Of a DNA stretch of 64,000 nt, positions 34,655-54,549 are shown piece after piece. The notes beneath the pieces were generated by a model. That model saw only the letters and a list, made by a program, of their open reading frames with translations, made no database searches and was not told the origin of the DNA. Both the position numbers and the translations under genes were made by a program. Position 1 is the stretch's first letter. Each line of letters starts with the position of its first letter. Origin of the DNA: Prorocentrum cordatum (lineage: Eukaryota); assembly GCA_963575745.1 (NCBI GenBank), contig CAUYUJ010000056.1, forward strand, positions 1-64,000, written 5' to 3'.

Positions 34655-35034
34655 CGGGAGGGGAGGAGACGGAGAGCATAGCCGCGCAGCCGTTAGGCTT
34701 TTCAAAGGCCGCGCGCACGACTGCTTGCAAGAAAGAAAACAGTGCGTACAGTCTGGCCTAACACCAGACTGTAAGGCGAGTTTCCTCGCAAGGCATTTCG
34801 CGCAAATACAAGATAGCCCCTTCGAACGATGAAGGGCTATCGGCTCAGTTAGAGGCAAACCAAACAGGCCATACCTTACCGAGCAAATATGTATTAAGGC
34901 AAAGAGCCTGAGTCATACAAAGCCGGCTCGCTGCCAGGCGTGAAATGTGAGGCTCGTTTCCGAGCAACTAGAAGGGCGCCTCTATAGTAGGCGCCCATGC
35001 TGGCAAATCGGACCGCGGGGGCAACAAGGACAGA

Positions 35035-35733
35035 CTAAAATTGATTAGACTTGGGTTTGTCTCTGTCCTCGGGACCCCGAAAGGGAACAAACTGCTTAAC
35101 GTCATACTTGAATGACTGGGTGCCTGACATCACTTCCAGAAGCAGCTCCCGATCGATGCTTCCCTTTGTATGCCCGTCTGCGGTCATATCCCTAGTATCA
35201 CACCACTGCACGTTATGTACTATACCTATATCCATAAGCTCACGTATCCAACTGATATGTCCAAGCAGGGTCCGTTCTGTCGGTATCTTAAGATCCTTGC
35301 TTGATAATGATTTATAAACGGACTCAGCGTCTATGGTAAGAGATACTTTGATGGCTAGGCCTCCAACTTCACGCATATCTCGTAGTTGTCGTGGAGTCAG
35401 AGCTCCTGCCTTGAGCTCGTGGAGAGTGATGAGCGTAGGGTAACACTCATCGAGGTTATGCGCCGCTGCGAGTGCCTCCGCAGCATAGCTGGACCTCACC
35501 TGCAGTCGGTGTGATTTGCATAGTCCGTCACAGAGGTGAACGACGGACTTGCCTTGAATCGAGTTTCCTCGCCGTAGTACATTCGCCCCGCGTATGCCGT
35601 AGCCCTTGGTCTCATCATCCTCCTCCCCGGTAAGCTTCCGATACCCCGAATCGCTGTGGATGTCAACTTCATTCGTCGGCTTCATCCGAGGGAAGGTGAT
35701 GCGTTTCGGGCTGCTGATCAGCTTTCGCGTCAC
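35035..35733 (-). CDS. pol: Copia-type RNase H segment of Pol
   Basis: Motifs DIHSDSGY...VRSSYAAEALA...TIDAESVY...WCDTRDMTADGHTK. It joins the RT segment if a TG duplication at ~35730 (GCTGTGTGACG) is removed. Confidence 0.9.
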   Translation of the reverse strand: MTRKLISSPKRITFPRMKPTNEVDIHSDSGYRKLTGEEDDETKGYGIRGANVLRRGNSIQGKSVVHLCDGLCKSHRLQVRSSYAAEALAAAHNLDECYPTLITLHELKAGALTPRQLRDMREVGGLAIKVSLTIDAESVYKSLSSKDLKIPTERTLLGHISWIRELMDIGIVHNVQWCDTRDMTADGHTKGSIDRELLLEVMSGTQSFKYDVKQFVPFRGPEDRDKPKSNQF

Positions 35734-37409
35734 ACAGCATTCAGGCGTCTGACTTGCAGATTGGCGGGCTCTTGGATTTTCTGGAGAGAGACCACGTATA
35801 CCATGAGCCAGATTTGAATAAGAAGGGCATAGGCGAGGGCTCCTCGCAAGCTGACGAACATGTCGGTAATGAGTTTCGTGGCTTTGGCATCGGCCGCCGC
35901 TCCTGTAAGTTCTGGGTGTGTGATAAGACGTAGTTGTTTGATATACTCGTCCTGATCCATAATCGCATCCCCTTGATCATTCTTAGTGTAGCGAACGGCG
36001 CAGTTCGTATGCGTGTGTTTGTTTAGCTTGCATTTGCCAAACACCTTTTCGACACGCTGGACGTAGTCGTCTATATTTTTCTCTAGACCAGTCATGTTAT
36101 TATCATCGACATGTTTTGCCGTTAGCAGATCTTGGCTGAATTCAAATTCAGGGTCATAACTGGTCGGTGTAAGACCCATAGCTCGTGTGGTCGTACGAAG
36201 TTTGAAAGAGAACGCTCTTGGAGCATCCTTTGTACCCGTTCCTGGTTTGAGGCATCTGAGGCAGTGTCGGCTTTCGTCATAGGATGAGAAGCCGGGTAGT
36301 GCACGAAGTACCTGGGCACTTCCCGGTGGAAGAGTGAAGCAGACCATGCGAGTTTCCTCGCCTGTGGCATGGGCAAGTTCCTCATAGGTCAAACCCTTGA
36401 GGAACGCCTTGTCGATATCCATGGATGCTAAGATCCACTCTGGATGGCATGCCGCCTCACTTGCCAGGAGTCTTTGGGACTGCCTTCGGACGGTTCCAGA
36501 GAATGTTTCCACATCGAAAGCCTCAGTATCCATAAATCCGCGAAGGACAAGTCTGAGACGAATGGTTTTAACGTTCTCGGTACCCACCTTTACAAACTTC
36601 CACTTGTATACATACCTGGATGTCATGATGTTGGAAGCTTTGGATAGATCATACATCTCAAAGCATCGGTTGTCAATCCAGATTTTGAGCTCAGTATACA
36701 AAGCTTCACTAACCTCCTTTGGGTGTGCTGCTATGTCGGCTTTGGTCAGTAGATCATCTTCTTTAACGACCACAGCACGTTTAGCAGCAGAGGATACATA
36801 TACTCTCATCGTTGCGACCATATCGGTGTCGAGCTGTGCAAGTTGAGTCTGATCTAACACTATTTTTGACATTTCTGATGTAAAACATAACTCAACGTAA
36901 GGACCATATTCATCACTATCAAGAGAGTAGCTCTCGTCAGGTGTGGTTGAGCAGAGAGAGACTATACAGGACTCTCGTGGTTCAGGCTCGTCTCCGAGCG
37001 TGACCGATGATATGGTATCTTCTTCGTCCATAGATGCTGAAACCAAAACACATTGGTCAGGCAGCATGGTTGTTGGGACGCAGTAAAGATAATCGTCGGT
37101 AGTCGTCGTAGGATGAAGGTCCATACGTAGTTCGTCGTACCACTCTTCCAGCATCATAGCTTCGATATTATGTTCCTCATTTTCCTCATAGATTGTCGAC
37201 AGACGACCTTCGCTCGGCGATGAAGCACCCGGGGTGTCTGGAGGAGGCCTGTTTCCAGGCGAATCGTGTTCTCCAGACGTGTTGCTTGAGTGCTGATATT
37301 TAGCCAGGTCGTCGTGAAATCCTAAGGAAGGGACACGTGAAGTCAAGCATTGAATGAGTCTGGAATGAGTGCTACCAGTGATCTGAGAAATGTTTAGGCC
37401 GGTGCCCAC
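35730..37409 (-). CDS. pol: Copia-type (RVT_2-like) reverse transcriptase segment of Pol
   Basis: Motifs SRYVYKWK...RLRLVLRGF...MDIDKAFLKG...GTKDAPRAF...HVDD. Confidence 0.93.
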   Translation of the reverse strand: MGTGLNISQITGSTHSRLIQCLTSRVPSLGFHDDLAKYQHSSNTSGEHDSPGNRPPPDTPGASSPSEGRLSTIYEENEEHNIEAMMLEEWYDELRMDLHPTTTTDDYLYCVPTTMLPDQCVLVSASMDEEDTISSVTLGDEPEPRESCIVSLCSTTPDESYSLDSDEYGPYVELCFTSEMSKIVLDQTQLAQLDTDMVATMRVYVSSAAKRAVVVKEDDLLTKADIAAHPKEVSEALYTELKIWIDNRCFEMYDLSKASNIMTSRYVYKWKFVKVGTENVKTIRLRLVLRGFMDTEAFDVETFSGTVRRQSQRLLASEAACHPEWILASMDIDKAFLKGLTYEELAHATGEETRMVCFTLPPGSAQVLRALPGFSSYDESRHCLRCLKPGTGTKDAPRAFSFKLRTTTRAMGLTPTSYDPEFEFSQDLLTAKHVDDNNMTGLEKNIDDYVQRVEKVFGKCKLNKHTHTNCAVRYTKNDQGDAIMDQDEYIKQLRLITHPELTGAAADAKATKLITDMFVSLRGALAYALLIQIWLMVYVVSLQKIQEPANLQVRRLNAV

Positions 37410-40400
37410 ACACTCGTAGTAGTGGAAAGCGGGCTGATATCGTTGTCATAGTGGATCAGCGTAGACCCGGTGGCGTACTTTACTGCAGGTAGGATTGACA
37501 CACTTTTGGCCAATCTAACTGCCACTACATGTTCTACTCGAAAGTAGTTTCGTACGAGATACTGCAGTGCTAGATGTACGCGCGGGTGAAACTTGCTGTC
37601 GTCTGAAAGATTAAGGTTTCCCTTGTAATCGGGGATATAGCCGAAAACTTTGGCAGGTTTCCCTGCGCCGAGGTGTGCCACATATGTAAGGGCGGTTTGC
37701 ATGGCCATATTATCCATGCCAAGTTCCCGTGTGAGGAGGCATTCAATGTATAGTGTGTGACGAGCATCAGGATACATCACAATTACCTCACGAGATCCTG
37801 CCTTGACAACAATATGTCCTCTTTCAGGCACATTACGGATCACCGGGAATGGGCCATTCCAGCCTCCATGGTCGTCCTTGGTGGCAGTGGGTCGGTGGTA
37901 ATCGACCAAATCCCCTGCAGAATAAAGGCGAGCACCATCAGGAGTCGTTTTAGCCCTAAGAGCCCGATTTGTCTTGGCCACAGCAGTGGCCTGAGTTATA
38001 GCTTCTAGGCTGACTTCCCGTACACGGCGTTCTCGTTCGTGTCCTGAAGTCTCGGGTCCCTTGGGAAAGTCAAGGGTATCGAGATCGGGAAGGAAGGAGG
38101 GCTGACGCCCTGTGTGTGCTTGGTATGGCGATACTCCGATATAAAACGTAAAAGCATTAGTAACGAAGATGCCTTCCGCCAATACTCTAGTGAATACAAC
38201 AGGGATGTTGTGTTTATTCAGTTCTTCCTCAATCATGTGGAGGACGCCTCTGAGGATGCCGTTCCGTGACTCAATTGAAGTCGCGTGTTGGCCAGGTGCT
38301 CGGATGCGAAGTTCCGTGCCCTTGTTGGCCATCATGGTTTCAGCGGCATCGTTATTCAGGGCGCCTTCTCCGTCTGAGTATAAGACTTTGAAGGGTCCGT
38401 GATAGGCAATCCAGCAGTAGTGGTAGGCGTCAATGATAGCGTCACGGTCTCTGTCGGAAATTTCTAGGCCAGCTGCCAGGCGAATACAGCGATCCATAAT
38501 GTGAAATATGGTCCGCTTTTTGTAGAACATGAGGTCCATTTCACCTTCGTCAAGCCAGTTACCAGGAAGGCTCACCGTGGGTAGTGTTGAGTTTCCTGGA
38601 CGTTCCCATGCTCTGCATTCCCGACAGGTATCGCAAACTTCCTTGATCATGTTCAGTCGAACTTTATCAAGCCCCACTTTGTCGAGGATTAGCCTCATCT
38701 TTGGTTCCTTCGCATGATGCCATCGCAGATGTAGTTTTCGGAGTTCCTTTTTCACGACGTGAGGTTCGTGACTACGGAGACTCTGTAGACTGTGTTGGAT
38801 GTCGAATCTAGTCCAGTCAGGTAGTCGAGGAGCCCCAGAGCCGGTAGAGGCAAGAGGGTTCCTTGTAGCTCTCCGTAGTTGGTCCCCTGTATTGACTGCA
38901 TCTGGAGGTGGTGGTACGCCTTGTAGGCGGCCCCGACGGGCCGCTACCTGTGGCGTTTCGCTAGAGGACGCAGAAGGCGTGTTTCCACGCTCGGGGGCGT
39001 CTTGTAGCATGTCGTAGCTGCTGGCACCAGATGTCGGATCGACGTTACCGAAGGATCGTGGTCGTGGTGGCCTGGCGTGTGCGCCTTGGCGGCCACCTGA
39101 AGCTGAAGCTTGGCCCTCACCCGGTTTAGGTAAGGGTTTCCACCAAGCTGGCACGGTTTTGCCTTCGGGGTCGTGATCGTCTGGAAGTTTAAATGGTTCA
39201 GCAAAACGACATTTACCAGGTTCGGTATCGAGGTGGTTCTTAACACCCTTGCTTCTCGTAAGATCCCTCTGGCATGCCGGACATGGCCAGTATACAGAGA
39301 TGGAATCATGATATTTACACTGTGTAGGGTCTCTGTTATGGCTAGGACTGTCCTTTCGGACGTTGTCGACGCATGCCGGGCAAGTGGCCACCTTTGGGAT
39401 GATACGATCACCGATGCGTCTCATACCTTCGCCTGGTTCAGCTTGATCGGGAAGGTCTGCAGGGTAAGCATGTGCAGTATTTATAAGCGCGTTTCCGCGC
39501 GTAGTGTCAATGGCTTTCGCCAGATAGACGGCTTCCACGAAGGCAGACTGCAGTCGTCGAGTGTATTTTTGTGCCAGTGAAAGCTCTTTATTGCACGGTT
39601 GTGCGTGCACATGCTGACCGTTGCACTTGAGTCGCTCAAAGGGTTTAAGAATTGTCTCGTCGTTGCTGGTGATATTTGTCGGCTTCTTAATATAGTCACC
39701 AGTTGTATCTTTGAGTCCCGTAGCACATTGGTCAATGCGTACGGTTGTAATGTGTGGTCGGTTGGCAAGTTTCTTCCATGGGGAAATATCATCCACCCAT
39801 GTTCCTGTAGGTTGTTCGCGTATAAACCACCTCCGAGCGTCATCTTGGGTTACAGCAATTTTACCACAATAAGTTATGTGTGGTAAATCTTCTCTGTGGT
39901 GCTGTTCCCAAGTGTTGTAGTTGACTTTGTAGTTGTAGTAGGATGGTGGTCCTGTGGTGCGGCAACTGGGTTGTAGCATGGCAACTCGTACGTAGCATAT
40001 AGCGAAGTAATGATCTATAACCCGCTGCACCGAGGGGTCTCCCAGGTCGACATATGTAGTCTTGTCTAGGTTGCCTCCTGAGGAGAGTCCCCTTGAGAAG
40101 GCAAGCTCTGAGATACCACCCTCACCGCCACAAAGCTCCAACATATCCACGCAGTTGTTATGACCATAGCATAGTGTAGCAACTATGCTGTATATGTTAG
40201 CGCGTGTGTCGGGCATAGATGTGGGGAGGGTAAGGAACAGGTCATCGTCCTCATCGGAGCTTATCAGCTCAATAGGGACGTCAGTACTCCAGGTTGCCAT
40301 CAGATCTTGTCCGAGTCCTGATAAATCGTCGCCGCAATCATCGTTTCCGTCTTCAGCGTGCTTTTTAATGCGGCGAAGCTTGATGCCTGCTTCCTTTTCG

Positions 40401-41500
40401 GCTTTGAGCCTTTCCTTCTGCTTGATACGCGATTCTGTGGGTAGAACTTGCTCATCTTGTTCGCCGGTCTGTGTGCCCATTGTCGTGGTTGAGTGGGTAC
40501 ATGCGTCAATCGCCAGAGTCGGGAGGGGGAGAGAACAGTCATCTATGATGGCGCGTCGAGGTTTCTGTGGTGATTGAATAGGCTCGTTTCCGAGCAAGAC
40601 CGGTTCTTCGGGTTGCCAATACAGCCGAGTACTGATGTTGGCAACCCCTGCAGGTAGTGGTGCATGCCAATCATACCCTGTTGGTTGATCGGTAACTGAG
40701 ATATCCTGAATAACCGCATTGGTATCCAGGTTAATTGTTACACGTCGGATAACTTCAGACCATTTCGGTCCTCCCTTATTGGTCGTCACGTAGTGACGGA
40801 TGTTGTGGTCTGTACGTGTATAGGTGTTTAAATATATAGGCACGTTTCCGTGCGTGGTGGTGCCCCCCAGGATGTTGTCGTTCAGATGACGGATGAGTGT
40901 AGTACGTGTCTGAGCTCGCCATTCAGCATGCCGTACTGCATGGCCGTACCAATCCAATACATGTTGTGGTATAGCCTGTTTGCATGTACATGCCCACAGC
41001 TTCGAGCTAATCGGTATTGATGACGCTACCTGCATATAAGTACCACTCGGTGTACTGTCTTGCATATTGAACCGAATACCGAAATGACACAAACGCATCC
41101 GTACTACTGACAACTTAAGATCTTCCAGGGTATCACGTACTGGAGATAACTTCCAAACATATCCTGGGGGACCACATATTATGATTTTCATACGGAGTTT
41201 CTTGGCTTTTATCAACAGGTTCTGGATACGTGACCAATGCGGGGCCACTCTCTTTCCTGGAGTCCGTACATACCAGTCACCCAGGGTACTAATCCATATG
41301 AGAGTATAATCTCCACTGATCACCGCACCCAGGTAATCTGTGCCCACGCTTGTCATAAGCTCATTGTGGGAAATACGATCACATATATAACCTCGGGTGC
41401 GGAGGTCGGCGCAAGCCTCTCTCGTATCCTCAATGACAAAAGCCCTCTTACTAAGGCAGGTTACCCCGCTGTCCTTGTTACCCCCCGGCTTTTCGGCCAA
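37394..41500 (-). CDS. pol: Pol segment: degenerate DNMT-like, C5-DNMT-like, two Cys/His fingers, integrase (HHCC, DDE, C-terminal SH3-like)
   Basis: Integrase motifs LHLRWHH..CREC, EMDLMF, LYSDGEG, IESRNG, PYQAHTG, GDLVDYHR..WNGP. DNMT-like motifs MLELCGGEGG, QPSC, REQP, IDQCATG..KKPT. Confidence 0.88.
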   Translation of the reverse strand: MAEKPGGNKDSGVTCLSKRAFVIEDTREACADLRTRGYICDRISHNELMTSVGTDYLGAVISGDYTLIWISTLGDWYVRTPGKRVAPHWSRIQNLLIKAKKLRMKIIICGPPGYVWKLSPVRDTLEDLKLSVVRMRLCHFGIRFNMQDSTPSGTYMQVASSIPISSKLWACTCKQAIPQHVLDWYGHAVRHAEWRAQTRTTLIRHLNDNILGGTTTHGNVPIYLNTYTRTDHNIRHYVTTNKGGPKWSEVIRRVTINLDTNAVIQDISVTDQPTGYDWHAPLPAGVANISTRLYWQPEEPVLLGNEPIQSPQKPRRAIIDDCSLPLPTLAIDACTHSTTTMGTQTGEQDEQVLPTESRIKQKERLKAEKEAGIKLRRIKKHAEDGNDDCGDDLSGLGQDLMATWSTDVPIELISSDEDDDLFLTLPTSMPDTRANIYSIVATLCYGHNNCVDMLELCGGEGGISELAFSRGLSSGGNLDKTTYVDLGDPSVQRVIDHYFAICYVRVAMLQPSCRTTGPPSYYNYKVNYNTWEQHHREDLPHITYCGKIAVTQDDARRWFIREQPTGTWVDDISPWKKLANRPHITTVRIDQCATGLKDTTGDYIKKPTNITSNDETILKPFERLKCNGQHVHAQPCNKELSLAQKYTRRLQSAFVEAVYLAKAIDTTRGNALINTAHAYPADLPDQAEPGEGMRRIGDRIIPKVATCPACVDNVRKDSPSHNRDPTQCKYHDSISVYWPCPACQRDLTRSKGVKNHLDTEPGKCRFAEPFKLPDDHDPEGKTVPAWWKPLPKPGEGQASASGGRQGAHARPPRPRSFGNVDPTSGASSYDMLQDAPERGNTPSASSSETPQVAARRGRLQGVPPPPDAVNTGDQLRRATRNPLASTGSGAPRLPDWTRFDIQHSLQSLRSHEPHVVKKELRKLHLRWHHAKEPKMRLILDKVGLDKVRLNMIKEVCDTCRECRAWERPGNSTLPTVSLPGNWLDEGEMDLMFYKKRTIFHIMDRCIRLAAGLEISDRDRDAIIDAYHYCWIAYHGPFKVLYSDGEGALNNDAAETMMANKGTELRIRAPGQHATSIESRNGILRGVLHMIEEELNKHNIPVVFTRVLAEGIFVTNAFTFYIGVSPYQAHTGRQPSFLPDLDTLDFPKGPETSGHERERRVREVSLEAITQATAVAKTNRALRAKTTPDGARLYSAGDLVDYHRPTATKDDHGGWNGPFPVIRNVPERGHIVVKAGSREVIVMYPDARHTLYIECLLTRELGMDNMAMQTALTYVAHLGAGKPAKVFGYIPDYKGNLNLSDDSKFHPRVHLALQYLVRNYFRVEHVVAVRLAKSVSILPAVKYATGSTLIHYDNDISPLSTTTSVWAPA
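39520..40155 (-). other. Cytosine-5 DNA methyltransferase-like domain
   Basis: Motif I-like ELCGGEG (40115-40150), motif IV-like PSC (~39962-39970) and motif VI-like EQP (39809-39817) occur in the expected order. Confidence 0.65.
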
Positions 41501-41539
41501 CAGGCAAGACGACGAGGGGGCGACGTCGCCCTGCCATCT

Positions 41540-43906
41540 TCAAGATAAAGAAGATGTGCCTGCAATGTCTGCCAGCATCTGGGCTTCCCTCAGATGCTGG
41601 AGCTCAGCACTGCAGCGCGCCGTGGCCTCAGAGGCGGATTGCTCCGCAAATGCTGTCAGCATGGATGGATTATCCATCAGCTGTTTCAGCACGCCTTTGG
41701 ACCTAGCGTCGCTGACCGTCTGCAGCTCACGGTTAGTGTATCCCATCACTATATTTCTGCTGGACTGTACAGCGTCCAAGGGTACACTTCCACCATGCTG
41801 GGCCAGTGTCCTGGCAACAAAGCAATCGAACGTCTCAAGATCGTCGATGCTGTCGCCTCGCATAGTGGCCTTGGCGAGCGTCTCCATCAACCCCTGAGGC
41901 AGGTTTCCCTGCAATTGCTCGCGCTCCTGCGCCGGGGTCGGCTCGCCCGTCAGCACTGTCTGGAATGACGTGCTGCTTGAGCTCGAGGCGGGTTGCCCCG
42001 CAGCTCCAAAACAATCACACCTGATCGACAGATGCCCTGACGGCAACTTCGTCGTCGGCATGATCTTGGAGCCCTCAGGGAGCTCCATTTTGACCTGCCC
42101 CTTACCAGGGAATATCAGCTTCTCCTGGCCTCGTTCAAGCACGATGATCGTGCGTTTGTCCTGCGTACTATCGAGGCCTAGGATGGCTGGCAGGTCCTTG
42201 CCACAGCCTGACACAATGTTCGTCTTGTATGAATCGAGTTGGGCCGACCCCTGGTACTCGCAGGCAATACTGAATGTGCCTACGGTATCCGCTGGGGCCG
42301 ACCCTTCTCCCACTCCGTTGATATTCAAACGAGAGCGGGGCTCGAACGTACAAGTACGGCCATGTGCCTCGGCAGCCTGGACGAACTTGCGGCTCGTGTT
42401 CTCGCCCATGATATTGATCTTCGAGCCGACATCGATGAGGATGGAATTTCCACCATCATCCAAGAACGTCTTACTCGGCTGCTTGATGTGCACCGTTTCT
42501 GAAGTGTCGGCTGTGCTGTTAGGCGGGTTTCCCCGCAGCCCAGTCGTACTCCCTGGCGGGTTGCCCCGCGTGACACTGGCATGCGACCTGCTTTCGGCCA
42601 TGCGCGCCAGGTCGATGTACTGGAAGTACGACACGTGCTGGGCGTGGTCGCCACGCTCCTCCCGCCAGTTGGCATACTCATCACGTATGCTCTTATACTG
42701 CTCGCGGGTCGTGCGCCTCGTCAGCGTCAGGTACGAGTGAAGGGCAATGTCCTGCAGCCCCTCATTCGTGATGTGATCCCGGTATTGCAGCCACTCCTCG
42801 AACTCCTCGTTCGTCGCTGTGATGTTGACGGCCCTGGCTGCCGTTGCTGCTGTTGCCACTGAGGAGTCTGATATGTCAAGCGACGGACTATCAGTCTCAG
42901 GATTGTCGGCATCCAGCATAAATGTTGTGTGCGCATTATCCATCTGGTTCTGGAAATATCGAACACGCAACTCACGCAGCTGGTCAGGGTCCAGTGCCAT
43001 CTCAGCCCCGCCTCCACTCTGGGGAGACATATGAGGGGTATTAGGCAGGTTTCCCTGCTGAGGCGCCGTCATCGGGATAAGCTGATCAAAATATCCCGTC
43101 TCCATCGGCGGCCTTACCTCCTCTGGCAGGTTTCCCTGCTGTTGGGGCTGAACTGTCTGCATATCTAGCATCCTGGCCGTCATCTCCTCCACCATGCTCC
43201 TCAACTCCCGCAGCTCCCCCGCTGCTTGCTCAGGAGTCTGAATGAAGGAGCCGGTCCACGGAAATGATGACGCTATGATGCCAGGTGCTCTGCAGATAGC
43301 ACATGGTGGCTGCTGAGGATCTCCCTCGCGCTGATTTGTGACATGGCCCACCACATTTGAATTCCAGCACCCTTCATGGAACAAGTGATTACACCTCAAA
43401 CGGTAAACACTTTCCCTGGGCTGAAATTCTTCGAGGCATACCGCGCAGGTATCTTCCATCCCAGCGAAGACCTCTACATCTGCTGCTCTGGGATATACCC
43501 GCCGCTGTCTCTTCAATACCGTCTCGGAGGGCATGAAGGCTGCTGGGGGAGTCCCCGTTGGGTCCAGCACCTCCGGCACTCCGGCATTTGGCACGGAGGT
43601 GGTAGGAGTCACAGCAGGCGAGTTTCCTCGCAAAGGTGAGCCCCTATTTCTTACAACCTCAAGTGCAGCTGCACGTGAATGATCTCGTACACTTTGCACG
43701 GCCTGCCTTCTCCTGAAACATGCCTGTTGAGTGTGGTAAGTCTGCCTGATGTAATCAGGCACGCCCCTACTGCCAGACGATATTGAATGGGCAGTGGGCT
43801 GGACAGCCACCTCTGGTGATGTCGGTGAAGGCATGAAGGCCATGTGCGGGTACATAGATTGGTCACTGCAGCGCACGTTAGTGAGGCTATGCATCTGATC
43901 CGCCAA
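41540..43906 (-). CDS. Polyprotein segment: RING-H2 finger plus retropepsin-like aspartic protease
   Basis: RING CAVCLEEF..RLRCNHLFHEGCW..CAICR (43289-43447); protease ILIDVGSKINIMG (~42405-42442), flap INGVG, and ILGLD. Confidence 0.85.
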   Translation of the reverse strand: MADQMHSLTNVRCSDQSMYPHMAFMPSPTSPEVAVQPTAHSISSGSRGVPDYIRQTYHTQQACFRRRQAVQSVRDHSRAAALEVVRNRGSPLRGNSPAVTPTTSVPNAGVPEVLDPTGTPPAAFMPSETVLKRQRRVYPRAADVEVFAGMEDTCAVCLEEFQPRESVYRLRCNHLFHEGCWNSNVVGHVTNQREGDPQQPPCAICRAPGIIASSFPWTGSFIQTPEQAAGELRELRSMVEEMTARMLDMQTVQPQQQGNLPEEVRPPMETGYFDQLIPMTAPQQGNLPNTPHMSPQSGGGAEMALDPDQLRELRVRYFQNQMDNAHTTFMLDADNPETDSPSLDISDSSVATAATAARAVNITATNEEFEEWLQYRDHITNEGLQDIALHSYLTLTRRTTREQYKSIRDEYANWREERGDHAQHVSYFQYIDLARMAESRSHASVTRGNPPGSTTGLRGNPPNSTADTSETVHIKQPSKTFLDDGGNSILIDVGSKINIMGENTSRKFVQAAEAHGRTCTFEPRSRLNINGVGEGSAPADTVGTFSIACEYQGSAQLDSYKTNIVSGCGKDLPAILGLDSTQDKRTIIVLERGQEKLIFPGKGQVKMELPEGSKIMPTTKLPSGHLSIRCDCFGAAGQPASSSSSTSFQTVLTGEPTPAQEREQLQGNLPQGLMETLAKATMRGDSIDDLETFDCFVARTLAQHGGSVPLDAVQSSRNIVMGYTNRELQTVSDARSKGVLKQLMDNPSMLTAFAEQSASEATARCSAELQHLREAQMLADIAGTSSLS

Positions 43907-46900
43907 TTCGCGAACAAATTTGTTCGAACCCTTGACCCATCAGGGTATAATGGCGGGTCCATCTGCGCTGGTGGTGGCCTCTGGCCCTGGGACATGCTCG
44001 GATGAGCATTGAACGCTGGGATGAAGGCTCGCTGCCGAGCAGGATCCCTTGGGTTGGGACCCTCAGGTTCCCAGGACCAGGCCGGCCTCCACCTCTGCCC
44101 ACTTGGGTGAGGCAGATTATGGCTCTGCACCTGCTGCACAGCGGCCGCCACTCTTGCACGGTAGTCGTCGGGCACACCAGCCCGATGGTGGCTTGGTGTG
44201 CCAGGCAGGTTTCCCTGCTGACTCGTTGGAGTGCCGGGCGGCATCATGTTCAGGAGAGCTGTGCCATGCTCAGCCCTAGCCGCAGCAATCCTCTCCATGA
44301 GGGTGCCGTTTGTGGCAGGGCGGCCAGGAGTCCCGAACGGAGACTGTGCAGGTGGTGTGGCCATTGGAGTCATGCCCCTCGGAGTGTGCATGCTCTGCGA
44401 GGGGCTTCCCTGCATTTGTTCAAACCGAGCAGGTCCGTTTATAGGCAGGTTTCCCTGCATGGCCTGACGGCTTCGCATTGCCATGGCGGACATTGCTCCC
44501 TGGCCTGCGGCCCAGGGGTCCTGCTGATATAACCTGTCCGCCAGTTGCTCTACCTGGTCAGGGTTCAGCGCGGCCGCTATCTGATCCAGGTCCGAGGTGC
44601 TGATGGCCTGCCAAGACACGGCACTAGGCCCTTGGCTTGGGGCACGGCTTGGAGCCGCGCTCCCGGCCTCACTCTCGGTGATCAGGAAGATCCGGTGGAT
44701 CTCGGGCTGGTTTCCCAGCTTGGTGGGACTATAGTGGTCCCCAACTTCCCTGTGGAGGTAGACCATGGGAGGGTCGACGCCCTCTTGGTCTCGGGACCAC
44801 TGGTATTTAACGCTAGCACTGCCAACGTTAGCCCACCTGTCAGGGGCAGACATTGTAGAAACGGGGACTCGCGTCCAGCGATTCCCCAGATACTCTGGAT
44901 TACGCCAGTGCTTTCCCGTGGCAAGGTCCTCTACATGAGAAATGCAGTACGGTTCAATGATACCGTTGTTTCCCTCAGACAAGAGGACTCCGTTATCGGA
45001 CCAACAGAACTTCATACCATCTTGCATGGCCTTGTGCCAATCCACGAAGATGATGATGTCTGAGTCTGGGTCCCACCCACTATTCACGGCACGACGGCGG
45101 ACCGTCGGCACGAAGTGGATGTGCGACCGGCCTGTCCCCCGTTTCTTCGTGTTGTGCTCGGGTCTACAGGACAGACCGTGCCACATAATGCCTTCGAAGG
45201 CATTCCACCGAGTGCCATGCATGGCGACTTCGGGGTATGGGGCCGGTCTCCCGGCAGGTTGGTCGCACAGTGCAATGTAGTTGTACAGCGACCATGGAGC
45301 TTTCAGTGTCCATGAATGCCCCTGAGAGGCGCGGATGAAGATAGCGGGCTCACCGGAGTCCCGCACCAACACCTTGAACTGAAGGCGCTGTTTTTCTTCT
45401 CCGTCTGGTTCACGGACATGAACAACTTCCATCATGATGGCTGCCAGTTGGTCAACCGAGCGAGCAAATAGCTGCTCATTGATGACTTTGGCCTCGTCAT
45501 ATCGTGGATTATACCCATCGTGTCTCGATTTTCCTGTGTTCCACGGATATTCACTCACGAGCTCCACGAGGTTAACCCAACCATCATGATCATCGAAGGA
45601 GTCCAGGCCCCACACGGGATTGTGAGGTTTGTCTGGCGCATGTCTGCATATCCTGCTGAGAGCTTTACTCAGCTGTTTGAGAGTGTGATTGGATGTAGGA
45701 AGGATTTTGTCTTGCCTGCACTTCTTCATGAATGCCTCGTCCACCGAACGTATCGGTGGGAGCTTCCGCAGAGCAAGTCTATCCCTGATCACACTCGGAC
45801 TCCCACTAGTGAAGGACGTGTCGCCTGGGTGGTGCAGCTGATCCACGGGCGGGTTTCCCCGCATAGGAACCTCTGTTGCTGAAGAGGCTGCGGCTCCTGA
45901 AGAGGAGGAAGCTGCAGCGGCAGCGCCTGGCGGGTTTCCCCGCGGTGATCCGCGACTGGCGCTGCCCCTAATCGTCGGCACCCAGGTACCCCTAGACATA
46001 GCACCTTCGTCGGACCTTTTGGAACGGGCCGCCACCGGCGAAGCTGGCGCAGGGGCATACCCGGTGCGCTCGAAAGCTGCGGCTCTTTTCGCAATGGAGC
46101 TGCTGCGACTGGGCGGACGTCTCCGTTCCTCCACAGGGTCCTGAGGTTGCTGCTTGGGCTCAGACGCTTGTGCAGGAGTTGCGCCAATCGGCGGCCTCGG
46201 AGTTGCAGACCGAGGCACCTCCATCTGCGCATCTGGCCCAGGGTCCTGAGAGTGCGCCTTCGGTTTCGCCTCCGAAGACGGCTTCGGTGCAGGGGTTTCA
46301 CTCTTAGCCTTCGACAGTAGTGGGAGTGGGGGTTTTCTAGCCCCCTTCATGTAAATTTTGCTGGAATCCTCCAACATCTGGCGAGTTGCCTCGCGTGCGC
46401 GTTCGTCTGCTATCCGCATGCGCTCCTCGTCCTCCGCAACGCGTTGGGCCTTCTGTTCATCCTTGGATGTCAGATCTGGTTGCTGGGACTGACTTGAAAC
46501 TCCGGGCGAGTTTCCTCGCATTCCAGGAAGACTAAAGAGCGCGTCTTTTTCTTCCTGGGTCATGGGCGCCAGTCCCCTTGGAGCCGTGGGAGGTTTATCC
46601 TCTTCGTCTTTCGGACCCAAGTGGCTCAAGATCCCGAGGCGGTGATTCACTTCTGCGATCTCGTCCTGTGTCATCGGGATAAGTTGCGGATGGCCCTCTT
46701 CATGAGGGGTTTTGCCCCTGCTGGGGCTCAGGCCTTCATTGTTGCCAACGGGGCATCCCGGCCTGTGGTTCTGGAACGGCTCGGAAAAAGGTCCGCAAGC
46801 TGCTTGGGGCCTATACTGCTTGCGAGCTGCGATGATGTCTCGCAGCTGAGTCCGCGCTTCTTGAATTTCAGGGCGGCGGATGTTTGTTGCAAGCTGATAT

Positions 46901-49900
46901 CCTCCACGGATAGCCTTGCCCTCAGTGTCCCTATGGGCAGGGTTGCCCTTGCCGAAGGCCGAGTGTTCCCCTTTTCGGCGTCTTGGGTCATTATACGGAA
47001 GCAGCTGGCCACCTCTCCTGAGAGCGTGTTCTTTCGGGCCAGCTTGCCTCCACTCACGAGGCAGCCGAGCCTGTGGATGTGGCTCTCCTCTGACGCGCGC
47101 ATGGGAACGCGACCTTCTGGTGTTCTCATCAGAAGAGGCGGCCGAAGCAGCCTGAGCGGCCACCGGTGGAGGCGCCTGCGGAGGCTCCTGTGCGATCCCA
47201 AGTGGATCGTCCGTCAGAGGCAGGTTTCCCTTCTGGCTGGAGCTTGGCGCAAATGGCGCTTGTGCCGATGGTGATGATGATTCAGACTCGTCGGGATCGA
47301 AGTCAACCTCTTCCTCACCATTAACTTCCATCATGAGGATTGTGACTTCATCCTCATCTAGTCCGCAACCATCGCCTTCTTCTTCTTCTGATGTAGAACT
47401 ACCGATGATGATGGCCATTGGCGTATCAGGTACAGGCAGGTTTCCCTGCATGGCCGGCGTCTGTGCGTCGCTCGGCTGCCCCGGGGTAGGAGGCGCTGTT
47501 GTCGGCTCAGGCTCGTTGCCGAGCACAGGCTGCCCGGCAATGTTGCGCATGGCCGTATGGTTTGGCCGCATTCCCACCGCCTGGAGACCCCATCCTGGCG
47601 GAGAAAGATCATGACCGCGCATGGCGATAGCCATTTCCAGAGCATTGCGCCATCTACCGCGGGAATATATCAGGTGTCTCTGCACGTCCTCAGGATGCAC
47701 GCTGTCAATGAGAGTCAGAGCTGCCAACAGCAACTCCGAGCTACCGCAGGCGTCGGTATCCTGCAGTATCATGCTGTCAGCTTCGATGTGCTCTTGACTC
47801 TCGGGATACGCGGTGATAAGTATCTCATGCATCCTCATGAGGGTATGCAGAAGAGTGCGTGGTCCGTATTCGCCTGGAGCAAGCGAACCAGGAGGTACAA
47901 ATGGGGTCTCTGGTTCACCTGCAATGAAAGCTTGTACGAAAGCCTGAGACTCCATTTCTATCAAGTCTTCAGTGGTTTGGGGATATTCTCCCATCAAAGA
48001 AGGCCTGTTTCCAGGCGGGATTCCGGGGGGAGGTTGGAGGTGGCGTTCAACCTCAGAAGGCGAGGCCTCTACAGTGATATCCTCGTCACTGCTTTCGTAG
48101 GCCATGATGTTACCTGGGTTCCCGAACATCCAGTCGAAGAAAGAAAGAGGCTGGTTTCCCAGCGTACCGTGATCCACGGGAGTGAGCTCGTTATTGCCAA
48201 TAACGAACCGGCGGACGTACTCGAGGTAGTACGCGTACAATCCATGACCATACGCCTCGAGCTCGTCGACGTTGTCCATGCAACTGACCCAAGTGTAAAA
48301 TATCTGCTCCATGGCTTCAAAATCCTGGAGGCTCAGATACTCAATGAATGGTTCACTTGAGCCAAAATGGACTTCGGTCGACCTGCCCTTTCCTTTTCCC
48401 TTCGCTGGACAATCTCGCGCAAGATGGTCGGTACTGTCACATTCATGGCATTTAAGAACCTGGCCGTCTCTACCTCGCGGGTTTCCCCGCCTACCCTTGC
48501 CTTTTCCTGAGGTCTCTCTACGGCCCTTGCCGCGGCCCTTTCCCCCAAAGAAGATCTCATCATATTGTTCATCTGAGAGCCTCTGGAGAAATGCCGCGAT
48601 GCCTCGTCCGTTCAACCTCCGACGACCACGCTTACCTTTACCTTTTCCCTTAAAACTCCTCCGAATCCTCCTTCTAACACGACGCACTGGTTTTCGCGTG
48701 AACCTCCTCCACCTTCGTTTGGCCTGTTGTAGTAACCAGAACAAATGTTCAGCGCGCTGATTGTCATTATCCATATTCATCATACCTGACCAATCTAAAG
48801 CCTCAACACCATCTGATGATACAGTATCTGTGTCGGTGCCGGAATCGAAATCCTCGTCTCCCAAGTAGGTGGATACACCGTCGGTTAGGGGGTTTGATTC
48901 ACCCCATAAGGAGCGGTGTGGTTGTGGTTCTCTGGAAGGAGGGCTGGTTGCCCAGCTTGGTTGTGATCGATCTCCTGCTAGTAGAGCAGTGGATTCTCCA
49001 GGATCATCAGCCCATATGCTTGAGGGCCCGTTCCCAGGCTGGGCTTCAGTAGTTAGGGTAGTGTAGAAATTTCCACTACCAGATCCCCTTCCCCTTCCAA
49101 ACACAGATCCTATATTGCCAGGAGACCGTTCGGATAGGTGGCCTATCGAACGCATCCTCTCCAGCAACTCATCATACTGTTGTTGTGTTCGGGGCATTTG
49201 GTGATTGAGTGGCTGTAAGAGTTGCATGGCTCGCTGGTTGCCGACGCCTAAGGCGCGGAACAAGATCGTGGTTAGTAGTTGGAAGTTGGGAAGGTCAAAT
49301 CCCACCGACTGTGCCTCAAGTCGGGCCATTTCGAATCGTGTAAGGGTGACATCGATTCGTTCCCCGTGAGGCACGTGGAAGTCGATGAGTTGTGTGCCGG
49401 AAGTGAGCTGGCGCTCATCTTCCAGGCGCTCGAACTTCATGCTTAGGAGGAACATGATGTAGGTCACTGGGTCAGTGTGGACCCCATCGATGTCAGCACC
49501 ATAATTTATAATGTCAGGCGGTACCCTCATGGCGAGTGTCCTCGCTAGGCCACCTAGGCCGCGTTGTATTGCGGCCGCTTGGGCCTGTGGCGTCATACGT
49601 CCGCTTGTGACGTTGAGCCATGCGTTGACCTCATAAACGTACTCACGGAAAGGTACGTTGCCTTGAGGGTCCCAATATGGGCCATGTGTTTGCCCATCGG
49701 TGCTGTTGTCTCCACGACGCATGTGTCCGATTGCTGCCCCCAGCGCGAACCATATGATAGCGAAGATAACCAGCCCAAGGCTGTGTAGATAAGGGCGGTT
49801 ATTAGGCGCGTTGCCGCGCTGGGGTAGCGCCTTGTCGAGTCTTCGAGGCGCTCTATCTGGCGGATCTCTCCGCCCCTGCTTCAAGTATTGCGCTTTTGGC

Positions 49901-50340
49901 TCGTTGCCGAGCGGTTGGTGGTAGCGCAATGATGAAGCGTATATGGTACCAATGTCGTTGTCTAGACGTCGTACCTCTCGTGTCGCTTCTTGCTCTTGGA
50001 TAGATCCTCGTAAACGTACTGGGAGTAATAGCGCAGGGTGGTAGGTGGTCACGAAGATCGTGCCGAAGAGTATGAGGCTAAAAAGAGCAAGAGCTGACCA
50101 CACGAGAGTGCGGCCAGCTCCGCTACCAAGTCGAAAGTGAGCCTGGTAACTCAAATAGCATCCGATACCATGGGGATCGGATGGCAGATAGCGTCCATTC
50201 CTCTGCTGCGGTGGTTCAGTATGGGGAATGGGCGGGTATGATAGGATAAGATCGATGTATCGGTCTTTCCAGCACATAGCGAACACAAGCAGTGTCCGGA
50301 CAAATAGGGCGCGCGTGCCTTGAGCCAAAGGCAACGGCAC
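43651..50340 (-). CDS. gag: Gag-like polyprotein with CCHC knuckle and embedded Tpt1/KptA domain (likely Gag ATG at 49722)
   Basis: 2229-codon ORF containing Gag-like PYWDP..FREY..W, a KGKGKG basic tract, CHECDSTDHLARDC (48409-48450) and Tpt1 motifs at ~44920-45680. Confidence 0.88.
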   Translation of the reverse strand: MPLPLAQGTRALFVRTLLVFAMCWKDRYIDLILSYPPIPHTEPPQQRNGRYLPSDPHGIGCYLSYQAHFRLGSGAGRTLVWSALALFSLILFGTIFVTTYHPALLLPVRLRGSIQEQEATREVRRLDNDIGTIYASSLRYHQPLGNEPKAQYLKQGRRDPPDRAPRRLDKALPQRGNAPNNRPYLHSLGLVIFAIIWFALGAAIGHMRRGDNSTDGQTHGPYWDPQGNVPFREYVYEVNAWLNVTSGRMTPQAQAAAIQRGLGGLARTLAMRVPPDIINYGADIDGVHTDPVTYIMFLLSMKFERLEDERQLTSGTQLIDFHVPHGERIDVTLTRFEMARLEAQSVGFDLPNFQLLTTILFRALGVGNQRAMQLLQPLNHQMPRTQQQYDELLERMRSIGHLSERSPGNIGSVFGRGRGSGSGNFYTTLTTEAQPGNGPSSIWADDPGESTALLAGDRSQPSWATSPPSREPQPHRSLWGESNPLTDGVSTYLGDEDFDSGTDTDTVSSDGVEALDWSGMMNMDNDNQRAEHLFWLLQQAKRRWRRFTRKPVRRVRRRIRRSFKGKGKGKRGRRRLNGRGIAAFLQRLSDEQYDEIFFGGKGRGKGRRETSGKGKGRRGNPRGRDGQVLKCHECDSTDHLARDCPAKGKGKGRSTEVHFGSSEPFIEYLSLQDFEAMEQIFYTWVSCMDNVDELEAYGHGLYAYYLEYVRRFVIGNNELTPVDHGTLGNQPLSFFDWMFGNPGNIMAYESSDEDITVEASPSEVERHLQPPPGIPPGNRPSLMGEYPQTTEDLIEMESQAFVQAFIAGEPETPFVPPGSLAPGEYGPRTLLHTLMRMHEILITAYPESQEHIEADSMILQDTDACGSSELLLAALTLIDSVHPEDVQRHLIYSRGRWRNALEMAIAMRGHDLSPPGWGLQAVGMRPNHTAMRNIAGQPVLGNEPEPTTAPPTPGQPSDAQTPAMQGNLPVPDTPMAIIIGSSTSEEEEGDGCGLDEDEVTILMMEVNGEEEVDFDPDESESSSPSAQAPFAPSSSQKGNLPLTDDPLGIAQEPPQAPPPVAAQAASAASSDENTRRSRSHARVRGEPHPQARLPREWRQAGPKEHALRRGGQLLPYNDPRRRKGEHSAFGKGNPAHRDTEGKAIRGGYQLATNIRRPEIQEARTQLRDIIAARKQYRPQAACGPFSEPFQNHRPGCPVGNNEGLSPSRGKTPHEEGHPQLIPMTQDEIAEVNHRLGILSHLGPKDEEDKPPTAPRGLAPMTQEEKDALFSLPGMRGNSPGVSSQSQQPDLTSKDEQKAQRVAEDEERMRIADERAREATRQMLEDSSKIYMKGARKPPLPLLSKAKSETPAPKPSSEAKPKAHSQDPGPDAQMEVPRSATPRPPIGATPAQASEPKQQPQDPVEERRRPPSRSSSIAKRAAAFERTGYAPAPASPVAARSKRSDEGAMSRGTWVPTIRGSASRGSPRGNPPGAAAAASSSSGAAASSATEVPMRGNPPVDQLHHPGDTSFTSGSPSVIRDRLALRKLPPIRSVDEAFMKKCRQDKILPTSNHTLKQLSKALSRICRHAPDKPHNPVWGLDSFDDHDGWVNLVELVSEYPWNTGKSRHDGYNPRYDEAKVINEQLFARSVDQLAAIMMEVVHVREPDGEEKQRLQFKVLVRDSGEPAIFIRASQGHSWTLKAPWSLYNYIALCDQPAGRPAPYPEVAMHGTRWNAFEGIMWHGLSCRPEHNTKKRGTGRSHIHFVPTVRRRAVNSGWDPDSDIIIFVDWHKAMQDGMKFCWSDNGVLLSEGNNGIIEPYCISHVEDLATGKHWRNPEYLGNRWTRVPVSTMSAPDRWANVGSASVKYQWSRDQEGVDPPMVYLHREVGDHYSPTKLGNQPEIHRIFLITESEAGSAAPSRAPSQGPSAVSWQAISTSDLDQIAAALNPDQVEQLADRLYQQDPWAAGQGAMSAMAMRSRQAMQGNLPINGPARFEQMQGSPSQSMHTPRGMTPMATPPAQSPFGTPGRPATNGTLMERIAAARAEHGTALLNMMPPGTPTSQQGNLPGTPSHHRAGVPDDYRARVAAAVQQVQSHNLPHPSGQRWRPAWSWEPEGPNPRDPARQRAFIPAFNAHPSMSQGQRPPPAQMDPPLYPDGSRVRTNLFANWRIRCIASLTCAAVTNLCTRTWPSCLHRHHQRWLSSPLPIQYRLAVGACLITSGRLTTLNRHVSGEGRPCKVYEIIHVQLHLRL
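44920..45680 (-). other. TPT1: Tpt1/KptA NAD+-dependent RNA 2'-phosphotransferase domain
   Basis: Motifs in canonical order: LSKALSRICRH, DGWV, KQR, IRASQGHS, HGT, GL..RSHIHF, IFVDWHKAMQDGMKF.WSDNGVLLSEG..GII.P. Confidence 0.88.
50117..50128 (-). promoter_or_regulatory. Primer-binding site TGGTAGCGGAGC (tRNA-iMet-like)
   Basis: It abuts the 5' LTR. TGGTAGC is complementary to the GCUACCA 3' end typical of eukaryotic initiator tRNA-Met. Confidence 0.85.
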
Positions 50341-50392
50341 GCGAGCTATGCGCCCGATACTATAACATCTCCCAAAGAGCTACCCTTAAAGT
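50129..50392 (-). repeat. 5' LTR (264 bp)
   Basis: Direct repeat of 34391-34654, followed by the PBS in element orientation. Confidence 0.95.

Positions 50393-54511: not shown

Positions 54512-54549
<38 letters not shown>

Follow-up and report, generated by a model that had tools for sequence, protein, structure and literature searches.

We analysed 64,000 nucleotides (nt) of Prorocentrum cordatum DNA (positions 1 to 64,000 of the forward strand of contig CAUYUJ010000056.1, assembly GCA_963575745.1), a stretch called the window below. Its minus strand carries a giant Ty1/copia-like long terminal repeat (LTR) retrotransposon, and a small hairpin of nearly constant shape is repeated dozens of times along this element. 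These hairpins are real and specific to the sense strand, they are not explained by the protein sequence, and their stems are paired beyond chance. Related lineages have dispersed hairpins of their own.

The retrotransposon and its hairpins

The element is 16,003 bp long (34391-50393, minus strand, like all its features given below) and is delimited by 265-bp direct repeats and by a paralogous empty site. The 5' LTR (50129-50393) and the 3' LTR (34391-34655), 265 bp each, are 98.1% identical, and their ends differ from the usual TG...CA. In the paralogue at 53510-54752 the sequence corresponding to 34246-34390 is joined straight to that of 50392-51016. A target-site duplication of 4-6 bp, GCTT(GA), is present on both flanks of the element and once in the paralogous empty site. 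Directly 3' of the 5' LTR we find the primer-binding-site-like sequence TGGTAGCGGAGCTGG (50114-50128); a TGG start adjoining the LTR is the usual position of a primer-binding site. The 21 nt just upstream of the 3' LTR (34656-34676) are polypyrimidine on the sense strand, at the place where a polypurine tract is expected. The reverse transcriptase (RT) open reading frame (ORF) at 35730-37409 matches the RVT_2 family of Ty1/copia type (PF07727, E=4.3e-9, 36.8 bits against a cut-off of 31.6), and most of its 61 homologues have PF07727 as well. The RVT_2 enzyme and two LTRs with a short target-site duplication agree with a Ty1/copia-type LTR retrotransposon. The domains follow one another in the order Gag-like core with CCHC knuckle, retropepsin-like LIDVGS, RT.

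ORF1 (2229 aa, 43651-50340) contains a Gag-like core, an arginine-rich stretch, a CCHC knuckle and a lineage-specific region with a Tpt1/KptA domain, as judged by Pfam. According to tblastn the Gag core (aa ~180-540) is conserved in other families. The nucleocapsid (NC)-like part of Gag consists of the arginine-rich stretch (KRRWRRFTRKPVRRVRRRIRRSF, 48652-48720), which is a candidate RNA-binding part, a Lys/Gly-rich stretch and a single CCHC zinc knuckle (CHECDSTDHLARDC, 48409-48450). The knuckle matches PF00098 at E=0.0025, below the Pfam cut-off, and has homologous knuckles in other families. Pfam and PDB sequence searches found no RNA-binding domain besides this knuckle. ORF2 (788 aa, 41540-43906) has a RING finger at aa 152-206 by Pfam and the retropepsin-like LIDVGS at 42422-42439 by alignment. 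ORF3 (1368 aa, 37394-41500) is conserved among relatives and lies at the position of an integrase; it has no Pfam family, and Pfam and PDB sequence searches of ORF3 and ORF5 gave neither an integrase nor an RNase H family. The reading frame of the window copy is broken at 43925 and 37429, where many copies in four sequencing runs have one extra base. With this base ORF1-ORF2 and ORF3-RT would be continuous, and the intact element probably encodes one polyprotein of ~5,000 residues.

Some further observations concern the coding part. The Tpt1/KptA RNA 2'-phosphotransferase domain (PF01885, E=3e-24) occupies 44971-45678, i.e. aa 1555-1790 of ORF1, and resembles a captured host gene. The ~4.6 kb around it (ORF1 aa ~700-2229) gave no tblastn match among the 81 related loci. 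The long ORF has its first ATG (50277) inside the 5' LTR, and similarity to the Gag of relatives sets in before the following in-frame ATG (aa 207) is reached, so that translation probably starts within the LTR, as it does in yeast Ty1. The family is very abundant: 25,597 contigs of one sequencing run carry it at 80% likeness or more, and the runs are labelled marine or plankton metagenomes. Named relatives are a Polarella glacialis protein 45% identical to the RT and a P. cordatum protein 88% identical over 12% of ORF2. The relatives of this giant element are probably from dinoflagellates.

We scanned both strands of the whole window for the strict pattern GCNNG-G[A/C]AA-CNNGC, i.e. a GC-closed 5-bp stem with a G[AC]AA loop. 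This pattern occurs 32 times on the minus (sense) strand and never on the plus strand, and all copies fall within 34776-49912, inside the element. Plus-strand coordinates show the hairpins as their reverse complement, and the GAAA or GCAA loop itself is on the minus strand. The initial annotation of this DNA had listed 29 perfect copies; the scan recovers 29/29 in place and adds three (48943, 46381 and 41634). Five more GC-closed hairpins appear when any G..A loop is allowed, which brings the total to 37, all of them on the sense strand. The first hairpin begins 217 nt past the 5' LTR and the last one ends 121 nt ahead of the 3' LTR. Five imperfect copies also listed at the outset (47220, 35559/35560, 41456, 46937/46938 and 37612/37613) are indeed one-mismatch versions.

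The commonest strict form is GCAGG-GAAA-CCTGC, which is found at 47436-47449, 44445-44458, 44205-44218, 43126-43139, 43045-43058, 41899-41912 and, in a different reading frame from most coding copies ("other frame" below), 37653-37666. GCGGG-GAAA-CCCGC stands at 48477-48490, 45930-45943, 45849-45862 and 42523-42536, and its GCAA counterpart GCGGG-GCAA-CCCGC at 42556-42569 and 41988-42001 (other frame). GCGAG-GAAA-CTCGC occupies 46506-46519, 43618-43631, 36348-36361 (inside the RT domain, other frame) and 34776-34789 (3' untranslated region, UTR), while GCGAG-GCAA-CTCGC is at 46381-46394 (other frame). The stem GCTCG/CGAGC carries GCAA at 49899-49912 and 47511-47524 and GAAA at 40582-40595 and 34952-34965 (3' UTR); GCTGG/CCAGC carries GAAA at 48150-48163 and 44706-44719 and GCAA at 48943-48956 (other frame). 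The remaining strict copies are GCCTG-GAAA-CAGGC (48003-48016 and 37247-37260), GCGCG-GCAA-CGCGC (49806-49819), GCGCG-GAAA-CGCGC (39487-39500), GCACG-GAAA-CGTGC (40840-40853), GCGTG-GAAA-CACGC (38977-38990) and GCGGA-GCAA-TCCGC (41634-41647, other frame). The wider scan contributes three GAGA loops, in GCGGA-GAGA-TCCGC (49860-49873), GCCGG-GAGA-CCGGC (45242-45255) and GCTCG-GAGA-CGAGC (36986-36999), and two GACA loops, in GCGAG-GACA-CTCGC (49532-49545) and GCCAG-GACA-CTGGC (41802-41815). With GAAA, GCAA or GAGA on a Watson-Crick closing pair and a regular stem, 35 of the 37 loops are of the GNRA type and are predicted from their sequence to adopt the sheared G·A fold; GACA, in the other 2, is not GNRA.

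The flanks of the hairpins are constrained as well. The base after the stem is C in 29/32 strict copies and the next one is T in 21/32, and merely 2/32 have a G before the stem. As a 5' G is avoided, the helix is held at exactly 5 bp. Such a fixed single-stranded context is typical of a shape that is recognised by protein. The 5' 8.6 kb hold 27 hairpins as compared to 10 in the 3' 6.9 kb, where the conserved enzymes sit. When each hairpin was folded in its own 164-nt context, 25/37 were part of the predicted minimum-energy fold, with a mean pair probability of 0.73. A search of 34000-51000 on both strands with 4,227 Rfam covariance models gave 0 matches at the gathering score.

Base pairing, null models and reading frames

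Perfect hairpins with a 5-bp stem and any 4-nt loop number 62 in the element versus 16.2 in 30 dinucleotide shuffles (shuffles were made for 21 of 82 sources). The GAAA loop alone is found 24 times in the element and its reverse complement 0 times, and any single loop reaches at most 2 in the shuffles. Another null is the shuffling of synonymous codons in the five ORFs, which preserves every protein and the codon usage. In 1000 rounds it gave 0.8 hairpins on average and 4 at most, against 29 observed.

Covariation can be seen when the hairpins are searched by their fixed letters only, with the skeleton GC..GG.[AG]AC..GC (equivalent to GCNNG-GNRA-CNNGC). On the sense strand of the element there are 35 matches, and both free pairs are Watson-Crick in 33 of them, the chance being 1/16 each. 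The other two are G·U wobbles: GCCTG-GGAA-CGGGC (49026-49039) with one U·G and GCGGG-GTAA-CCTGC (41456-41469) with one G·U. The 48 kb outside the element have 3 skeleton matches on the same strand and 1 on the other, and 0 are fully Watson-Crick at the free pairs. A similar picture is obtained from the GGNRAC words. Among the 81 on the sense strand the number of further contiguous pairs is bimodal, exactly 4 in 33 words and 0-1 in 43, and none of the 25 on the antisense strand has more than 2. One-mismatch stems in the window (n=13) are at about background level and too few for a wobble test. The proposals that the motif is confined, within the window, to the sense strand of the element and that its stems covary are borne out by these counts. 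Hairpins of this kind cannot stem from base composition, codon usage or the encoded protein.

The 30 coding copies are unevenly spread over the reading frames. More specifically, 24 are in one frame, where they encode xGNxP (e.g. LGNEP, RGNPP, QGNLP), and 3 + 3 are in the other two frames; 2 more lie in the 3' UTR. The first reading of the sequence had placed the hairpins in different frames and in the 3' non-coding region. This is true of 6 other-frame and 2 UTR copies, but 24/30 share a frame. Its view that the signal is nucleic acid rather than peptide is upheld by the codon-shuffle null, by the 6 other-frame and 2 UTR copies and by the perfect pairing of 33/35 skeleton matches. There are 25 xGNxP peptides in 5,181 ORF residues, and 22/25 are perfect hairpins. 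Their variable residues come in pairs that follow base pairing and not chemistry (L-E, R-A, R-P, R-S, R-T, Q-L, L-Q, P-R, H-V). We read the frame bias as a constraint on where the protein tolerates a hairpin, G-N-x-P being small and flexible, and not as the cause of the hairpin. The hairpin at 48477-48490 lies in the conserved NC peptide RRGNP, within the NC-like GRRxNPxGRDG that is kept in all related families. Hairpins can therefore arise by substitution on pre-existing sequence.

Hairpins of related lineages and their evolution

Relatives of the element were collected as 80 loci from metagenome contigs by RT alignment and one locus, L081, from a collection of genome contigs by ORF2, giving 81; all were oriented with the element sense strand as plus. 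The viral contig collection contained no relative of the element, and the genome contig collection only the distant L081. This locus is a 9.9-kb contig filed under a Rickettsiales metagenome-assembled genome that encodes a eukaryote-type copia-like polyprotein; it is probably mis-binned.

Several lineages have a dispersed hairpin that differs from that of the window. L031-L035, L037, L038 and L060 (RT identity 33-35%) carry NNNNN-ATCA-NNNNN with variable stems, at 11-26 loops per locus of at least 5.9 kb on the sense strand and 0-1 reverse-complement loops. In L036 the loop has five nucleotides, AATCA (14 sense, 0 antisense). L010 and L013, which are closer to the window in RT identity (49%), have 10 and 7 sense-strand copies of TCACG-G[A/G][A/G]A-CGTGA, and L011 has 8 of GCACG-GNRA-CGT(G/T)GC. 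A variable covarying lower stem with the constant cap GGCTCTCGGAGTC is found in L045, L046 and L048 (15 sense, 0 antisense). L047 has G(T/G)CC-T(T/G)CG-GG(A/C)C with a UNCG-type loop and a covarying pair; its core word gives 16 matches, and the motif is embedded in a longer repeated unit of ~36 nt. CC(T/A)C-GACC-G(A/T)GG occurs 7 times on the sense strand of L030, and a variable stem with GRTCC-C-GGNNAC-A-GGATC occurs in L081 (10 sense, 0 antisense). Every one of these motif types is found in more than one reading frame, and in the RT tree each hairpin type is restricted to one supported clade. The tree contained 68 of the 80 loci and the window (12 loci with an RT match shorter than 250 residues were excluded) and came from a quick IQ-TREE search with support by the Shimodaira-Hasegawa-like approximate likelihood ratio test (SH-aLRT) only. 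Motif discovery found no motif repeated at least 5 times in L003, L004, L006, L008, L015, L058 and L070. The hairpin trait is frequent in this group of elements and not universal.

Pairwise clustering of the hairpins, with spacings of ~30-40 nt, was considered and rejected. Spacings of up to 100 nt in the window are as frequent as under random placement (8 observed, 7.6 expected), and those of L031, L032, L034 and L038 are likewise unremarkable. L010 is the sole locus of those compared with an excess of close spacings (4 against 1.0 expected).

Other features of the relatives were noted in passing. L039 contains the 8-mer GACAGTGA in 14 sense-strand and 0 antisense-strand copies, which are spread over two reading frames and show no evident pairing, and the same 8-mer occurs in L040 and L057. 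It may be a non-hairpin counterpart of the dispersed hairpin signals. A Gag-like region follows the RT in the same orientation 1-5 kb downstream in L010 (4528-5115), L042 (1754-2422), L005 (2920-3276), L011 (8663-8974) and L038 (7838-8461). Such contigs thus span the junction of two element copies, which are either tandem copies sharing an LTR or were joined by assembly across repeats. The window copy has an in-frame TGA at 41540-41542 (minus strand). In many lineages single in-frame stops, mostly TGA and at some loci TAG, separate long ORFs of the same frame: L034 (5409-5411), L038 (3559-3561 and 11702-11704), L037 (1825-1827 and 8152-8154), L071 (4442-4444) and also L004, L007, L009 and L011. 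Since they recur in this way, programmed read-through or a different decoding of the stop seems likelier than decay.

The ATCA family is suited for following single sites, with copies that are 76-99% identical and 54 clusters of orthologous sites represented in at least two loci. Among distinct variants the pair cells are 528 Watson-Crick, 27 G·U, 16 A·C and 19 other. Eight pair positions have changed on both sides, which answers in a sister family the question whether compensatory changes occur. One full path is preserved, from CACCA/TGGTG through CATCA/TGGTG (U·G) to CATCA/TGATG, i.e. C-G to U·G to U-A. Odd pairs were counted in stems with an ATCN loop and exactly one such pair, in five loci out of nine, one per sub-lineage. 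T:G and G:T together amount to 58 as compared to 26 for A:C and C:A, whereas all other loops in the same loci give 113 versus 176. The sense strand thus tolerates wobble and its complement does not, suggesting that the sense strand is the one that folds. A transcript folding as RNA would behave in this way; minus-strand complementary DNA (cDNA) folding on itself or a double-stranded DNA site would not.

For the window family, variation was taken from four sequencing runs, using the best-supported 40 of 2,626 variable places and 12 of 53 indels. These runs contain thousands of diverged copies. Among the best-supported 40 of 2,626 differences none breaks a hairpin, and one restores the sole copy with an A·G mismatch: GAAGG-GAAA-CCTGC at 47220-47233 becomes perfect with the base that all four runs have at 47232. 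Fragments that are 75-87% identical keep QGNLP, RGNPP and similar peptides at five of the sites examined, and a few fragments have decayed versions (RGSPP, QGSLP, QGNLS). Two ORF2 homologues with 39-41% identity have RGNAP, RGNTP, HGNVP, RGDAP (three times) and RGDTP at or beside hairpin sites, and 7/7 of these residue pairs can be encoded by complementary codons. In 152 homologues complementary-codon pairs are present in 16/37 xGNxP, with 5% expected from composition and 3-7% found in three control motifs. Protein homologues therefore keep xG[ND]xP with residue pairs compatible with complementarity, and the covariation claimed for the window extends, as judged from proteins, to its own clade.

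Two sites are exceptions in being shared between families of the GNRA clade. The L001 orthologue of 37653 is GCGGG-GAAA-CCTGC with one G·U, and at 37247 L003 and L004 keep the skeleton with one mismatch. L001:2511 was rejected as an orthologue of hairpin 36348, since codon-level mapping puts it near the site of 36986, at a distance of ~9 nt. For most relatives of the GNRA clade the loci lack the 5' half of the element. Within a family sites persist, and from one family to another they turn over, as is expected of many redundant sites under collective selection. Conservation of sites against synonymous drift among relatives is apparent from the alignments of the sister ATCA family, and the comparison of proteins and copies suggests it for the window family.

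Possible functions of the hairpins

The reading that we favour, with a probability of roughly 45%, is that the hairpins are multivalent binding sites on the RNA, specific to the lineage, and that a protein encoded by the element (most likely Gag with its basic zinc-knuckle part) uses them to select or package the 15.7-kb RNA. We infer here protein binding of the hairpins, Gag as the binder and packaging as the outcome. If this is true, the 37 hairpins would be selected structural elements of the full-length sense RNA. In each, three pairs of the stem would be fixed (G-C, C-G and the closing G-C) and two free to covary, the loop would be of GNRA type and an unpaired C-pyrimidine would follow on the 3' side. 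The hairpins would be embedded in coding sequence wherever the peptide is tolerated, mostly as xGNxP. They would act jointly as many weak docking sites specific in sequence and shape. The NC-like part of Gag, with its arginine-rich and Lys/Gly-rich stretches and CCHC knuckle, would be the best candidate reader, and Gag would pick out, coat, condense and package the 15.7-kb RNA while passing over those of the many related families that share the genome.

The fixed loop, pairs, 3' base and length, the dozens of copies on one strand and the different hairpin of each lineage argue for a cis signal with a partner that co-evolves with the element. The element has what would be looked for in dispersed packaging signals, namely many stem-loops of one motif all along the genomic RNA and on one strand only (37 versus 0). 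The lineage-specific motifs of the relatives make a packaging function through Gag NC more plausible. The arginine-rich stretch and the CCHC knuckle are homologous across families, and the residues of the knuckle differ. Compaction of the RNA, also suggested by the initial annotation, is not favoured in the form of tertiary contacts. The sense strand shows no enrichment of the two halves of the canonical 11-nt GAAA receptor (CCTAAG 1 with 4.3 expected, TATGG 19 with 12.1 expected, one pair within 200 nt), and the loops of a sister family are not GNRA (ATCA).

Several observations weigh against packaging by Gag. There is no cluster of hairpins in the 5' leader, unlike in classical retroviral packaging signals, and the spacing does not differ from random placement. 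Twelve of the 37 hairpins are outside the predicted local minimum-energy fold. The close relatives L003, L004, L006 and L008 and many other lineages lack a repeated motif, and therefore hairpins are not indispensable for such elements. Codon-level mapping shows that most single hairpin sites are not shared between GNRA-clade families. The wobble excess in ATCA stems comes from T:G (48), and G:T (10) is not above A:C or C:A. Finally, the strong frame bias (24/30 xGNxP in the window, 10/10 HGNVN in L010) leaves room for a contribution of the peptide.

Dispersed signals are known from packaging-signal-mediated assembly in MS2, satellite tobacco necrosis virus, parechovirus, enterovirus-E and the pregenomic RNA of hepatitis B virus (PMC6281560, PMC5699041, PMC7793301). 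The signals of single-stranded RNA viruses are described as many short stem-loops spread genome-wide in coding sequence with a common loop motif and variable stems, like those of the window, and as individually weak, jointly acting and specific for the cognate coat protein. The viral motifs are degenerate and were found by systematic evolution of ligands by exponential enrichment (SELEX) and modelling, whereas the window copies are near-identical in shape (37 perfect). The carrier is an LTR retrotransposon known here from its sequence, and not a virus.

In retroviruses the stem-loops of Psi, such as the SL2/SL3 tetraloops of human immunodeficiency virus 1 or those of mouse mammary tumour virus, are bound by the zinc knuckles of Gag NC. 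The likeness is a tetraloop with exposed purines read by a basic CCHC-knuckle domain of Gag; our element encodes such a domain and would read its hairpins in the same manner. However, Psi has few hairpins in the 5' leader, and here dozens run along 15 kb in ORFs and 3' UTR. Ty1 belongs to the same superfamily as the window element (RVT_2 reverse transcriptase), and its Gag is both an RNA chaperone and the packaging protein. To our knowledge Ty1 Gag lacks a zinc knuckle and the cis signals of Ty1 are long-range pairings near the 5' end; we know of no repeated hairpin motif in it. The N proteins of phages lambda and P22 read boxB, a 5-bp stem with a GNRA-type loop, by an arginine-rich stretch, with details matched in each phage. 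Unlike the window hairpins, boxB is present once or twice per operon and acts in bacterial transcription antitermination, and sequence and host are unrelated. Bacterial repetitive extragenic palindromic (REP) sequences, mitochondrial GC clusters and miniature inverted-repeat transposable elements (MITEs) are likewise short hairpin units in many copies. They are intergenic or mobile and genome-wide, whereas the window hairpins are in-frame, change by substitution and do not occur in the 48 kb around the element. We found no earlier description of repeated hairpins in retrotransposon coding sequence in the full-text literature searched, subscription journals being outside its coverage, and a review of dinoflagellate genomics has 0 occurrences of "hairpin" or "palindrom". 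What would be new here is that dispersed packaging hairpins belong to an LTR retrotransposon, that their copies are unusually uniform and that their types separate cleanly by lineage.

A different protein-bound role is the strongest alternative, though an unlikely one in our estimate. The hairpins could be sites at which an element or host protein acts in nuclear export of the unspliced 15.7-kb RNA, in protection from decay or silencing, in localisation or in translational control. A selected, lineage-specific RNA structure on the sense strand fits such a role equally well, and a randomly spaced spread over the whole RNA suits coating or protection as much as packaging. The element encodes other candidate partners too, a RING region and large unassigned regions. 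On the other hand, the export or stability elements of retroelements are, as far as we know, single structured regions and not dozens of mini-hairpins. Motifs that differ between lineages point to a partner that has evolved together with the element, the simplest choice being Gag. In kind, packaging and other protein-bound roles fit the data equally.

Involvement in reverse transcription is improbable. The hairpins would be pause or strand-transfer sites, places of internal plus-strand priming on a long template, or hairpins of the single-stranded cDNA. The polypyrimidine beside the 3' LTR, where there is no purine-rich tract, fits this idea, and the 5' halves of the window hairpins are purine-rich (e.g. 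AGGGAAA); a long template could benefit from several initiation sites. However, the ATCA, UNCG and CTCTCGGAG types of the sister lineages are not purine-rich, the wobble of ATCA stems is on the sense strand as for RNA and not as for minus-strand cDNA, and a general pausing role of the RT would need no lineage-specific loop.

It is distinctly improbable that the hairpins have no function and are by-products of mutation or insertion (small palindromic units, template switching) or of repeat expansion inside the element. A window copy with almost only perfect hairpins and few decayed ones agrees with this possibility, and so do the fast turnover of sites between families and the ~36-nt repeated unit around the L047 motif. 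Yet an insertion of 14 nt would break the frame, and 30 of the 32 strict copies lie in ORFs that stay open across them; homologous proteins align across hairpin sites without gaps of 5 residues, and some sites reuse an ancestral peptide (RRxNP in NC). The orthologous positions of the ATCA family, long kept with compensatory changes, argue against a neutral process, of which a constant loop, a constant 3' C and an avoided 5' G are not expected either.

Selection on the peptide xGNxP, which might be cut by a protease or be a short linear motif of disordered linkers, with the hairpin incidental, would account for the shared frame, for the number of such peptides and for the G-N or G-D kept by relatives at aligned sites, but is very improbable: synonymous shuffling destroys the hairpins (0.8 versus 29), which largely refutes it, the variable residues obey base pairing, and copies stand in other frames and in the UTR of the window and in 2-3 frames of the sister families. 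As implausible is the processing of the hairpins by the element's own Tpt1/KptA domain, with RNA cut and religated at the loops and 2'-phosphates removed by Tpt1, because, even if carriage of an RNA-repair enzyme calls for explanation, Pfam finds no Tpt1 in any ORF of L034 or L038, two loci that between them span the ATCA element, tblastn finds 0 matches of the Tpt1 region in 81 loci, and we know of no endonuclease of tRNA or HAC1 type that cuts a 4-nt GNRA loop.

Packaging by Gag can be carried one step further. Each lineage might have a private RNA barcode, one hairpin type in 10-40 copies that co-evolves with its own Gag, so that packaging stays within kin even though the nucleus also contains competing copies of related families by the thousand. 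We regard this as possible but doubtful; if it is true, it would be the first packaging-signal-mediated assembly in a retrotransposon. More generally, if the hairpins are packaging sites, LTR retrotransposons would use the strategy of small RNA viruses, with many weak identical stem-loops written into coding sequence, and would solve in this way the selective packaging of a very long RNA. Lineage-specific hairpins would then be a cis signal and protein that co-evolve and keep competing families apart, which bears on how dinoflagellate-type genomes hold huge numbers of few element families. They would also form a natural set of orthogonal pairs of RNA tag and protein, usable as orthogonal RNA tags. 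Packaging specificity in Ty1/copia elements is a long-standing question that becomes directly testable with hairpins that are short, countable and lineage-distinct. The motifs are also a cheap means of sorting these elements, which are poorly annotated, by sequence in marine metagenomes.

The element lies in repeat-rich surroundings. The insertion site itself is repeated ~3 kb away, with 53510-54752 being 87-92% identical to 34246-34390 and 50392-51795, and the repeat supplies a natural empty-site control. A tandem array of ~20 copies of a 10-bp unit (CAGGAGGCCC-like) is present at 52163-52392. Long imperfect tandem arrays rich in ATG/GATG triplets fill 29070-31720, where the unit GGTGTCCCGATG recurs every ~44-53 nt in two blocks ~1.5 kb apart. 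Farther away, an ORF of 841 aa with pentatricopeptide repeats (PPR_2, E=1e-25) at 8556-11081 on the minus strand is probably a host gene.

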